Virus record (IMG/VR): IMGVR_UViG_2874920711_000003
Source: a virus
Lineage: Duplodnaviria; Heunggongvirae; Uroviricota; Caudoviricetes
Length of the DNA: 36,999 bases
Direction: 5' to 3' (one strand)
Below are positions 30,890 through 33,067 of this stretch, piece after piece (the first letter of the stretch is position 1; each line of letters begins with the position of its first letter). The notes under the pieces were generated by a model. That model saw only the letters and a program-made list of their open reading frames with translations. It ran no database searches and was not told the DNA's origin. Both the position numbers and the translations under genes were made by a program.

Positions 30890-31140
30890 AGCCTCACCTC
30901 CGCACGGAACGGATGGCATAGTTATTATGTGTAGGCTTTCAGACACATCAATCAGAGCCTTAATTGATATATATGCTGGAGACGATGCAATATAAAAAGC
31001 TCGCCGTAGCCAGCTAATAAAATGTATTTCTCTGATATTATGTTTATTTGTATTAGCTCAGACTTGACATCACAGGTTTCGTATATAGAACATCATCAAA
31101 TCTGTCAGTTTGCTATGAATGAGATATAGTAATTGAAGAG

Positions 31141-31535
31141 CTAACCTCGCATGTCAAAGCCAGATTTCTGAAAATCTCTGTAGACTTCCGGATTGTTGAA
31201 GGCCGGAAATTTGGCTTTATGAGCTGCGGACTTTATCGCTTCGCAATAGGCTTTATCACCGTTACTGGTAGATATTTTTAACGCCGTGCCATCCTGAGAG
31301 AATTCCATATGCAACCTGCATTTTTTCCCTTTCCAGTTATGCGGCTCATCAAGTTTGGCATTAATTGCAGCTCTGATTCCCCGCGCTTGCGCCCCCATTC
31401 ATCCTGATCATCCCAGCGTCCTGAACTGCAACTACCTGTAGCAGTAGTTTTGTGGCAATCTGAAGGGTGTAAAGGTGTGCATCCCGCAACAAAACCGACC
31501 CAAAAAGTCAACATAACGATTTTCTTTAATCCCAC
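31141..31535 (-). CDS. small lipoprotein, paralog B of a tandem pair, frame-broken
   Basis: N-terminal frame MGLKKIVMLTFWVGFVAGC (lipobox); body ...KGKKCRLHMEFSQDGTALKISTSNGDKAYCEAIKSAAHKAKFP... in another frame. Confidence 0.55.
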
Positions 31536-31639
31536 TTCTTGCTCCTCAATCCATTAAAATCTCAGCAATAGTAGTTGTTACGTCCGCCACTGGCTCAGAG
31601 CTGACTATCCGCTAAATTTAGCTCAGTGCCGTAGTTGTG

Positions 31640-32112
31640 TCAGAACAAACCTAAGCCGAAACCGTTTATTACAAAACAATAAATATCAGGGTTTAAAATC
31701 CAGCACCCCATTTTGAAATACTTTATATACTTCCGGCGAAGGGGGGCAGGTATATCAGCATTCTTTATCGCATTCATCGCTTCACGACATAAATCGAGGT
31801 CTCCACTTTCTCTTTTAACCTCCAGTAGAAGGCCATTCGGGCCATATGCATTCTCAGTGTACACTCTTTTCCTGAATACTTACTCGCATCCCCGAACTGT
31901 TTTTCGATGGCGCTCTTGATTTGATGGGCATACAGACGGATATCCTCACTAACATCAGAAGTACGTTCAGATGAACTCACATACTGTGTCTCTATTGCTT
32001 TATCGGAGTAATATGATGTACGGTCATGATAATTTGTCGATACAGCATCAGTGCACCCGATAATAATCCCACTAATAATCAACGTAAGAATTGATGCGCT
32101 ACGAAAACCCAT
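31640..32112 (-). CDS. small lipoprotein, paralog A of a tandem pair, frame-broken
   Basis: MGFRSASILTLIISGIIIGC (lipobox)...SGKECTLRMHM then ...PNGLLLEVKRESGDLDLCREAMNAIKNAD... in another frame; shares the K-x-C-x-L-x-M...C-(E/R)-A-(I/M) pattern with paralog B. Confidence 0.55.
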
Positions 32113-32612
32113 TTTTCCTCACATATGTCATATAGTAAAGGATTATATATACCGTTGTTTTGGACGCTCAAACAGCGAATCAGATCAAATAAAACGCACA
32201 TTTGTTAACATTTACACAAAGTCTGCGTGGGATATTCTGAAAGAATATCCATAATGTGGAGAAAATCTATTGAAGTGCATGGTGCCGGGTGCCTCCCGGT
32301 GAATTCAGTACCAGCACCTGAATCCGCGATTATCCCATATACCTACTCGCTGATTGCCCCTCCGCACAGGGGATTCACCATGCCAGTTTCTTTTAACAAA
32401 CTCCCCGCAAACCAGACAACAGTCAACCGCCTGAATTGTGAAGTATTTAAAAATTTTTCCCGCTAACTGATACCCGGCTAACAGTCTGGCGTTTTCTTTT
32501 TCAGCAACGGGAAAGCAACAACCACCACACCCGCCACCAGCACACCGTCAGCCAGCACTGACATTATCCGGCTGCTGCAATGCCATTCACAAAAACAGTA
32601 AGCAATCACTTT

Positions 32613-32957
32613 TTACCGTAACAGGTGATAATCCATACCACAGGTCCTGGCTATTCTGTTGTACTCCTGAACAAGAGCAAATAATTCTGAATTAGAAACC
32701 ATGAACTCATCGCAAACCCTCTGAATAGCATCACTATTCAGAATAATAACGTCTCTTCCCGAAAGACGATCAGGAGTACAGAACAAAACTGTCAAACGGC
32801 TGAAGGCCTTTGCTCGTGCTGCATTGACTATATCAATACGCTGCCTAAGGATGAAACACCCCGACGCCTCATCAATATGCACTCTACCCACACCATATGA
32901 ATGATAAATATTTAATGCTGAAAAAACCATTAGACCGTATAACAAACACTCAATCAA
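32613..32957 (-). CDS. hypothetical protein in an AT-rich cargo region
   Basis: 114-aa ORF in a visibly AT-rich stretch just downstream of the tRNA genes; no recognisable motif; start uncertain. Confidence 0.4.
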   Translation of the reverse strand: MIECLLYGLMVFSALNIYHSYGVGRVHIDEASGCFILRQRIDIVNAARAKAFSRLTVLFCTPDRLSGRDVIILNSDAIQRVCDEFMVSNSELFALVQEYNRIARTCGMDYHLLR

Positions 32958-33067
32958 TACTTAACAGAACTTTTATTTTTGACAAACATATAATATTTTC
33001 AACAATATCCTGAGCCAGGTATATTCCAGTATAAGGCTCTGCCGGAAGGAATCTGGAAGAATGAATA

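Follow-up and report, generated by a model that had tools for sequence, protein, structure and literature searches.

The locus considered here raises the question of what a lambdoid prophage carries between its late antiterminator gene Q and its holin gene, the slot that holds the toxin genes stxAB in Stx phages, and what the carried genes may do for the lysogen. It lies in a stretch of 36,999 nucleotides (IMG/VR record IMGVR_UViG_2874920711_000003, hereafter the window). An initial annotation recognized two tandem small lipoprotein genes in this slot, here called geneA and geneB, and could not place their family. They almost certainly encode accessory ("moron"-type) lipoproteins whose sole folded part is a copy of domain III of the host protein TolA (TolAIII). 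In the form corrected for frameshifts, as discussed below, the two genes are as follows.

31686..32112, minus strand: geneA, a predicted lipoprotein with a signal peptide, lipobox Cys20 and TolA domain III; 142 aa corrected

31141..31535, minus strand: geneB, a predicted lipoprotein with a signal peptide, lipobox Cys19 and a diverged TolA domain III; 131 aa corrected, GTG start

The family left unplaced by the initial annotation is the TolA C-terminal domain, Pfam PF06519, which was matched at 82.6 bits by geneA and at 54.6 bits by geneB (threshold 25 bits); the only other Pfam match of the lipoproteins was a weak one to TonB_2. The equivalog models of TolA were matched only at positions 293-386 of 387 (NF007065) and 265-362 of 362 (TIGR02794). 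The NF007065 scores of 107.8 (geneA) and 53.7 (geneB) fall below the cut-off of 213, and geneA passes the TIGR02794 cut-off. Residues 55-142 of geneA align without a gap to residues 334-421 of E. coli TolA, with 52 of 88 positions identical (59%; E 5e-28), and geneB aligns to the same region with 27 of 88 identical (31%; E 5e-9). Both disulfide cysteines of TolAIII are aligned in the two proteins. The two-cysteine core noticed earlier in the pair is real, and the cysteines of its K-x-C-x-L...C-(E/R)-A motif correspond to the conserved disulfide of TolAIII.

Structure prediction led to the same family. The AF2 models of geneA and geneB both show the TolAIII topology (alpha-beta-beta-alpha-alpha-beta), with domain pLDDT above 90 and disordered N-terminal tethers. 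In a Foldseek search with the geneB model, the top PDB match was E. coli TolAIII (3QDP; TM score 0.90, root-mean-square deviation 1.0 Å), and the other best PDB matches were TolAIII complexes with colicin A, If1 g3p and M13 g3p. The structural neighbours of this model are TolA and TonB C-terminal domains. Lysozyme inhibition, one of the roles proposed initially, finds no counterpart in these results: the fold is that of TolAIII, and no match to the Ivy, MliC/PliC or PliG families was found.

Compared to TolA, the two proteins share the fold, the Pfam family and the disulfide of E. coli TolAIII (PDB 1S62, 3QDP, 1TOL, 3QDR, 2X9A) but differ in everything around it. TolA possesses domain I, which couples it to TolQR and the proton-motive force, and a long helical domain II. 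geneA and geneB are not TolA proper, because both of these domains are absent and a lipoprotein signal, followed by a short tether, is present instead. They also lie outside any tolQRA-tolB-pal operon, between Q and the transfer RNA (tRNA) genes on one side and the holin of a lambdoid prophage on the other, in the late region. The initial annotation had regarded assignment of both proteins to a well-characterized housekeeping family as a point against its reading of the locus; the domain does derive from a housekeeping protein, but the proteins themselves are not that protein. In RefSeq/PGAP, the intact geneA of E. coli MLI107 (locus L001, 4659..4919) is labelled a pseudogene, "tolA, incomplete, missing N-terminus". 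This label appears to be a by-product of the match to a full-length model, since geneA clears the TIGR02794 cut-off. RefSeq also starts geneB at a later internal ATG, which would shorten the signal peptide too far. Both the pseudogene call and the internal start look like annotation artefacts, which would recur over hundreds of genomes.

The corrected sequences carry canonical lipoboxes under a rule of the PROSITE PS51257 type ([LVI][ASTVI][GAS]C, a basic n-region and the cysteine at position 15-35). In geneA, R4 precedes ...IIIG|C20; in geneB, read from the GTG at 31535, K4 and K5 precede ...FVAG|C19. The earlier description of the pair as tandem paralogous lipoproteins is supported. The residue after the lipobox cysteine (+2) is threonine, not aspartate, in both proteins, which predicts that they are sorted to the outer membrane and anchored in its inner leaflet. 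The linker between Cys20 and the domain in geneA is disordered and about 35 residues long, and the TolAIII domain of such a protein would hang into the periplasm on a tether of 25-35 residues.

The use of corrected sequences requires justification, as each of the two genes is broken across two or three frames in the window. Phage mEp460_ev081 and many complete E. coli genomes contain this 2.1-kb locus at 99.3-99.5% identity, and E. coli MLI107 (L001) and mEp460_ev081 (L002), both near-identical to the window locus, served as references. Compared to these, geneA in the window has lost one nucleotide near 31841 (C4 to C3) and one near 31746 (C7 to C6), and geneB one near 31396 (G6 to G5). Restoring the two deletions moves the end of geneA to 31686 from 31640, the end given in the initial annotation, which lies 46 nt too far downstream; the coordinates of geneB stand.

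If these frameshifts were real, geneA and geneB would be dead in this prophage and the cargo would be decaying. Both lipoprotein genes and many other open reading frames (ORFs) of the window are indeed interrupted, for example in the pieces at 25155..27977, and a 36-bp deletion in the neighbouring 114-aa ORF is a genuine difference. However, decay is very unlikely, given the form that the losses take. In stretches of at least 97% identity, all seven indels are single-nucleotide deletions in homopolymers of at least four, including non-coding DNA and a small RNA (sRNA): the STnc100 sRNA and the tRNA spacer (~33172) each lack one C from a homopolymer. Over all stretches of at least 94% identity, 10 of 17 deletions but none of six insertions are of this kind, and the homopolymer losses are found near 31396, 31746, 31841, 32372, 33172, 36695, 36760, 12624, 12836 and 4185. 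Runs of six or more C or G are depleted ten-fold: the 37-kb window contains one, and 39 kb from a comparable prophage contain 10. Furthermore, the locus otherwise matches hundreds of intact copies at 99.3-99.5% identity, and among 80 related IMG/VR viral contigs, 78 have a full-length geneA and all have a full-length geneB.

Collectively, the intact reference copies and the homopolymer signature indicate that the frameshifts in the lipoprotein genes are very probably sequencing errors, and the corrected 142- and 131-aa proteins were therefore analysed. The window resembles an unpolished long-read-type assembly, so every frameshift in it is suspect. The C7 and G6 tracts were also considered as sites of phase variation or programmed frameshifting, but this was rejected, as intact copies dominate and the same single-nucleotide losses occur in non-coding DNA and in the sRNA.

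The two paralogues are old. geneA and geneB share 29% identity (E 2e-18), and this distance, together with their differing nearest relatives, rules out a recent tandem duplication. The closest known relative of geneA is E. coli TolA, and the closest relatives of geneB, 78-89% identical, are found in Citrobacter, Enterobacter, Serratia, Klebsiella and Raoultella. The ratio of nonsynonymous to synonymous substitution rates (dN/dS) is 0.08-0.13 for geneB. For geneA as a whole, it is 0.35, with 0.24 for the TolAIII domain and 0.47 for the signal peptide plus tether. Such values point clearly to purifying selection on both genes.

What the domain may do is best considered from the ligands of TolAIII. 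It forms the globular end of TolA, which is anchored in the inner membrane, and binds the N-terminus of TolB, and it is exploited by g3p of Ff phages and by colicins A and N. The TolB N-terminus, the N1 domain of g3p and colicin N each add a strand to beta3 of TolAIII at A415-K420 (PMC4339652, PMC3365938, PMC7391070), and colicin A adds a strand at residues 375-380, where three lysines make cation-pi contacts (PMC3365938). At the beta3 site, colicin N (dissociation constant ~1 µM) and g3p-N1 bind more tightly than TolB (~40 µM), and the values for the invaders are generally ~1 µM or stronger (PMC4339652). The residues of the two lipoproteins at these sites compare with those of TolA as follows.

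Beta3 strand: LDFKP in TolA; LDFKP, kept exactly, in geneA; FDMRG in geneB

Colicin A box: LLDIKP in TolA; LLEVKR, with two of three lysines, in geneA; ALKIST, with none of three lysines, in geneB

The consensus of the family keeps the C-terminal strand of TolA (FKNxxLDFKx).

A further feature is confined to geneB. Its residues 20-48 (~31392..31478) read C-x-PLHPS-x-C-HKTTATGSC-SSGRWDDQDEWG and are nearly invariant across genera. This segment, which follows the lipidated cysteine, contains two extra cysteines and an acidic motif with two tryptophans (SGRWDDQDEWG). Its near-invariance and these motifs suggest that it is more than a flexible tether. SSGRWDDQDEWG may bear a weak likeness to the colicin TolB box (DGSGW...W).

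From the domain identity, the fold, the lipobox, the conservation of the binding strand, the purifying selection and the mobile distribution described below, we infer that geneA and geneB could act as decoys, tethered to the outer membrane and not energised, and so protect the lysogen from colicins that enter through Tol, from filamentous phages or from both. This is the leading but tentative reading, quite possible though short of probable. An incoming colicin translocation domain or g3p would first meet many lipid-anchored TolAIII domains near the outer membrane and only then the real TolA coupled to the proton-motive force, of which a cell contains 500-2000 copies (bioRxiv 10.1101/790931). 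The invader would bind the decoy by the same beta-strand augmentation without being pulled in, and the lysogen would turn tolerant to Tol-dependent colicins and/or Ff-type phages. Given the tighter binding of invaders and the scarcity of TolA, a few thousand decoys would be well placed for this purpose and would have a limited effect on the weak TolA-TolB cycle. Two diverged paralogues would broaden the range of ligands, as geneA keeps the strand used by TolB, g3p and colicin N and most of the colicin A box, and geneB is altered at both binding sites. In these terms, superinfection exclusion or envelope modification, both suggested in the initial annotation, becomes plausible specifically as interference with the Tol import pathway.

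The distribution of these genes bears directly on this proposal. Of 5426 complete E. coli genomes, 776 contain the geneA-geneB tandem, counted when at least 80% of its 975 bp was matched, and nearly all copies are at least 99% identical. When geneA, geneB and the 114-aa ORF were compared by tblastn with a collection of sequenced phages, only mEp460_ev081 was matched; since the survey of isolated phages was thus uninformative, prophage contigs of IMG/VR were surveyed instead. In all 80 related viral contigs, the pair lies upstream of the essD holin gene in the same orientation. The upstream side of the pair is variable in these contigs, with two types of Q and with or without the 114-aa ORF and a DUF3927 gene. 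Other lambdoid prophages have a variant of geneA with 66% identity at a different place within this slot, where its neighbours are the nanS-p esterase gene and genes for TfpB and a regulator of the AraC type.

Plasmids carry related genes in large numbers. Relatives of geneB with 87% identity occur at about 525 places on pO157-type and other E. coli plasmids, and the one on pO157 sits near psiB, psiA and hok. In a tblastn search of plasmids, TolAIII-like ORFs were detected on 1307. An identical gene for a 123-aa protein with a lipobox and TolAIII is present on 379 of these, mostly Klebsiella ColRNAI plasmids of 10-12 kb, and a further 304 plasmids, mostly of the IncF type, carry a relative with 64% identity, which in the one case inspected is adjacent to a thioredoxin-fold gene. 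On the one ColRNAI-type plasmid that was inspected, the cloacin-like NZ_CP044260 (locus L014, 5908..6641), a gene for a TonB C-terminal domain with a Sec signal (121 aa) comes directly after the lipobox-TolAIII gene (123 aa), and this pair is divergent from an operon encoding a colicin-like tRNase, its immunity protein and a lysis protein. The pair thus encodes, as separate proteins, the tips of the Tol and the Ton machinery for colicin import. No published function for this Klebsiella pair was found in the literature; PMC10269471 goes no further than noting that a cloacin plasmid has "TolA and TolB family proteins".

Among 139 cluster representatives recovered in a HMMER scan, 70 have a length of 110-165 aa. 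A lipobox-like motif is present in 52 of these 70, always with a residue other than aspartate at +2; under the stricter rule of the PS51257 type, the number is 40. The combination of a lipobox with TolAIII is thus a broad architecture.

Chromosomal homologues of geneB are single genes. In Enterobacter, the homologue lies between the genes for glutathione peroxidase and RidA; in Serratia, between nrdDG and a GmrSD/HEPN pair; in K. oxytoca, between TetR and acetyltransferase genes; and in Citrobacter, at the edge of a prophage. In Serratia marcescens (locus L008, 6001..8736), the homologue is directly upstream of the GmrSD-type (DUF262) and HEPN genes, in a neighbourhood that resembles a defence island.

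These chromosomal copies raise the alternative of a role that concerns neither invaders nor lysis. The proteins could be outer-membrane partners that tune Tol-Pal, TolB-Pal or the envelope stress response, or they could represent a fold re-used for a new ligand, which applies most readily to geneB with its Cys-loop and SGRWDDQDEWG segment. It is favoured by the conservation and strong purifying selection of the single genes in Enterobacter, Serratia and Klebsiella chromosomes, by the nearly invariant N-terminal segment of the geneB clade and by interface residues in geneB that are unlike those of TolA. However, the chromosomal site differs from genus to genus, the plasmid and prophage copies are typical of a mobile accessory gene, and the TonB-domain partner on a bacteriocin plasmid points to import pathways. 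We regard such a role as rather unlikely. The distribution is that of a mobile gene in the conflict among bacteria, phages and plasmids, and the decoy proposal fits the bacteriocin plasmid with both Tol and Ton tips, the occurrence in plasmid leading regions and the defence-gene neighbours.

Several points count against the decoy proposal and should be considered together. First, both genes are frameshifted in the window and, if this were real, would be inactive here. Second, geneB is without the colicin A cation-pi lysines and has FDMRG at beta3; its ligand may differ. Third, no functional study of stand-alone TolAIII genes was found in the full-text literature, PADLOC gave no match for geneA or geneB, and the PHROG family of the lipoproteins, phrog_5772, is labelled "unknown function", with no exclusion annotation. 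Fourth, the TolB-binding strand, if retained in a decoy, could also interfere with Tol-Pal at a cost to the cell. Fifth, the homologue in Enterobacter looks stable, with the same neighbourhood in many assemblies, as would fit a physiological envelope role, and the invariable linkage of the pair to the holin would fit a lysis-related role too.

The linkage to lysis is best judged from the layout of the locus, whose other elements are listed here in the order of transcription.

33463..34287, minus strand: late antiterminator Q, with a DnaJ-type zinc finger, of the Qin/mEp460 type; ~97% identical to Q of E. coli MLI107

33363..33382, minus strand: intrinsic, tR'-like terminator just 3' of Q; a 7-bp stem with 5 GC pairs and a T-run

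33244..33319, minus strand: tRNA with a CAT anticodon; Met by ARAGORN, tRNA-Ile in RefSeq for the identical gene

33068..33144, minus strand: tRNA-Arg(TCT), from the tRNA call

32613..32957, minus strand: "114-aa ORF", phrog_2873 (PHROG E 4.6e-64), with a probable length of ~90-110 aa

32478..32609, minus strand: small hydrophobic 43-aa protein, DUF3927 or "TciB-like" (PF13064, 95.6 bits, threshold 25; phrog_1470; RefSeq)

32223..32412, minus strand: STnc100-family sRNA (Rfam RF02076, 106.1 bits, gathering threshold 47, model positions 1-206 of 206)

32142..32171, minus strand: sigma-70-like promoter TTGAGC-18-TATAAT directly 5' of geneA; consensus scan 10/12, the best of the region on this strand

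30674..30889, minus strand: EssD-type holin, the first gene of the lysis cassette

30355..30669, minus strand: DUF1327 protein, lysis cassette

29766..30299, minus strand: lysozyme, lysis cassette

29305..29784, minus strand: Rz, lysis cassette

29367..29549, minus strand: Rz1 lipoprotein, lysis cassette

By analogy with lambdoid architecture, the terminator at 33363..33382 would mark the start of the Q-antiterminated late transcript. The terminator scan showed no strong terminator between it and the lysis genes. Late Q-dependent transcription, as proposed in the initial annotation, is therefore plausible, but expression need not depend on Q only: the sequence at 32171..32142 is a possible moron promoter that may allow expression in the lysogen. 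The genes could accordingly be expressed as part of the late transcript under Q control and, in the lysogen, probably from a promoter of their own as well.

This arrangement also suggests another use for a TolA tip, the main rival of the decoy proposal. Lipoproteins made in bulk from the late transcript could soak up the N-terminus of TolB or compete with TolA and so sabotage Tol-Pal. The cell would then mimic a tol mutant, with a looser outer membrane, more vesicles and easier release of virions, periplasmic contents or cargo alongside the spanins. The pair is downstream of Q and tR' and, whatever the type of Q, upstream of the holin in the same orientation in 80 of 80 contigs, and geneA retains the exact TolB-binding strand. 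TolAIII directed to the periplasm by an engineered signal sequence makes cells release periplasmic protein (PMC6195910, citing Levengood-Freyermuth 1993 and Wan & Baneyx 1998), and tol mutants leak and hypervesiculate (PMC7391070). However, the plasmid and chromosomal relatives have no lysis genes nearby, and the 66%-identical variant of geneA lies away from the holin, upstream of an esterase. In addition, the Rz/Rz1 spanin pair is already complete, and the weak affinity between TolA and TolB (~40 µM, PMC4339652) means that large amounts would be needed. Sabotage of this kind is unlikely to be the function of the pair.

Compared to the known occupants of the slot in Stx phages, the window shows a mosaic of shared and distinct elements. 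All elements of the cargo locus recognized initially are present on the minus strand, and the position matches that of stxAB: in Shigella phage 75/02 Stx, the order is Q, stxA, stxB, STnc100, esterase and holin. The cargo of Stx and related phages (stxAB, STnc100 and the nanS-p esterase; tciA/tciB in phage JLK-2012) likewise fills the interval from Q, and any tRNAs that follow it, to the holin. STnc100 and the DUF3927/tciB gene are shared as well, but the window carries neither toxin nor esterase. The tRNA(CAT) and tRNA-Arg(UCU) pair presumably resembles the tRNAs upstream of stx in Stx phages. The GC content of the cargo is 38-46%, versus ~50-56% in the backbone.

STnc100, which was absent from the initial map, belongs to a known prophage sRNA family (bioRxiv 10.64898/2026.05.13.724894). 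In the window, it sits between the DUF3927 ORF and geneA and carries one homopolymer deletion (~32372). It is found at the equivalent place in E. coli MLI107, phage 75/02 Stx (L003) and loci L004, L020 and L098, upstream of geneA in MLI107 and L020, and it flanks cargo genes on either side in other prophages. Its recurrence beside varied cargo suggests that it marks a junction, or serves as a landmark, in the slot between Q and the holin. By this landmark, the 114-aa ORF and DUF3927 take the position of stxAB, and the lipoproteins take that of the nanS-p esterase. An ORF on the plus strand at 32227..32466 was rejected as a gene because it overlaps STnc100; an antisense "hypothetical protein" pseudogene of RefSeq overlaps it likewise.

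The AT-rich 114-aa ORF, which RefSeq leaves unannotated, is probably a real gene. It belongs to the low-GC cargo and has 23 clusters of homologues, all from E. coli and Shigella. Against a homologue with 57% identity, dN/dS is 0.28 at a synonymous divergence (dS) of 1.15, which indicates purifying selection. The ORF thus exists as initially described, but both of its ends need revision. The conserved core in the alignment of homologues begins near GTG 32882 or ATG 32930, and the true start is probably internal, at one of these two codons. At the other end, a deletion of 36 bp (~32631..32635), between TGGAT direct repeats and relative to all references, replaces the conserved C-terminus ...DELRITHLG by ...DYHLLR. 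As it is not of the homopolymer type, this deletion is probably a real allele. No signal peptide was evident on inspection of the ORF by eye.

The Q homologues match the Pfam family Antiterm. The Q frame of the window has no start codon at the start position of the references (34270..34290, minus strand), and the RusA-Q junction is unlike theirs; it may be a mosaic joint or a miscall in a G-run (GGGGG, ~34277).

Returning to the decoy proposal, several known systems provide useful comparisons. The closest functional precedent, whether for a decoy or for sabotage, is the engineered, exported TolAIII, which like geneA and geneB is a free domain without the rest of TolA. The engineered domain is soluble and over-expressed, whereas geneA and geneB are natural, lipid-anchored, diverged paralogues maintained by purifying selection on mobile elements. 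Colicin tolerance from exported TolAIII was reportedly also described in the 1993 work of Levengood-Freyermuth. Small phage lipoproteins and outer-membrane proteins that protect or alter the envelope of the lysogen include Cor (phi80, N15, HK022), Llp (T5) and the morons Bor and Lom, whose genes, like the pair in the window, are accessory and lie close to the late region. The receptor FhuA is blocked by Cor and Llp, whereas the predicted target of geneA and geneB is the periplasmic Tol import step. No relation in sequence or fold to Cor, Llp, Bor or Lom was found, as the Pfam and PHROG matches are of the TolA type only.

In the exclusion exerted by filamentous phages, periplasmic g3p occupies TolA and closes the Tol entry route. 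The same interface between g3p-N1 and TolAIII (PDB 1TOL) is proposed here for geneA and geneB with the roles reversed: g3p saturates the host TolA with a ligand of the invader, whereas geneA and geneB would saturate the ligand of the invader with a copy of the TolA tip. Finally, the Klebsiella ColRNAI lipobox-TolAIII protein (123 aa, ...FKNAPLDFRP; annotated only as "tolA") shares the architecture of geneA and is ~39% identical to it over the domain, but its gene is paired with a TonB-domain gene (annotated only as "TonB family protein") and linked to a colicin-like tRNase operon instead of a phage lysis cassette.

The identification of the family is not new, as the domain is well known and the genes already bear generic names in RefSeq. 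However, lipid-anchored stand-alone TolA tips on prophages and plasmids, present here as a diverged tandem pair, appear to be an undescribed class. It is possible, though not probable, that mobile elements of Enterobacteriaceae carry such a class of "import-machine decoys" that give broad, receptor-independent tolerance, with geneA and geneB as a version with two specificities. The carriers would be prophages, IncF- and pO157-type plasmids and bacteriocin plasmids, one class of Col-type plasmid adding a periplasmic copy of the TonB tip next to that of TolA, and colicins and g3p would be intercepted in the periplasm. The tandem pair is found in about one in seven E. coli genomes. The genes are real and widespread. 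For annotation, the "tolA" pseudogene label of RefSeq conceals an intact, conserved geneA, and the frameshifts seen here resemble errors of assembly.

Competition among gut Enterobacteriaceae is shaped by Tol-dependent bacteriocins such as colicins, which are under development as narrow-spectrum antibacterials, and filamentous phages also use TolA, as a co-receptor. If the decoy proposal is true, mimicry of the TolA tip would represent a new mode of lysogenic conversion and could be one reason why so many natural isolates are insensitive to colicins, and the two proteins would offer a natural probe of the interface of TolA with TolB, colicins and g3p.

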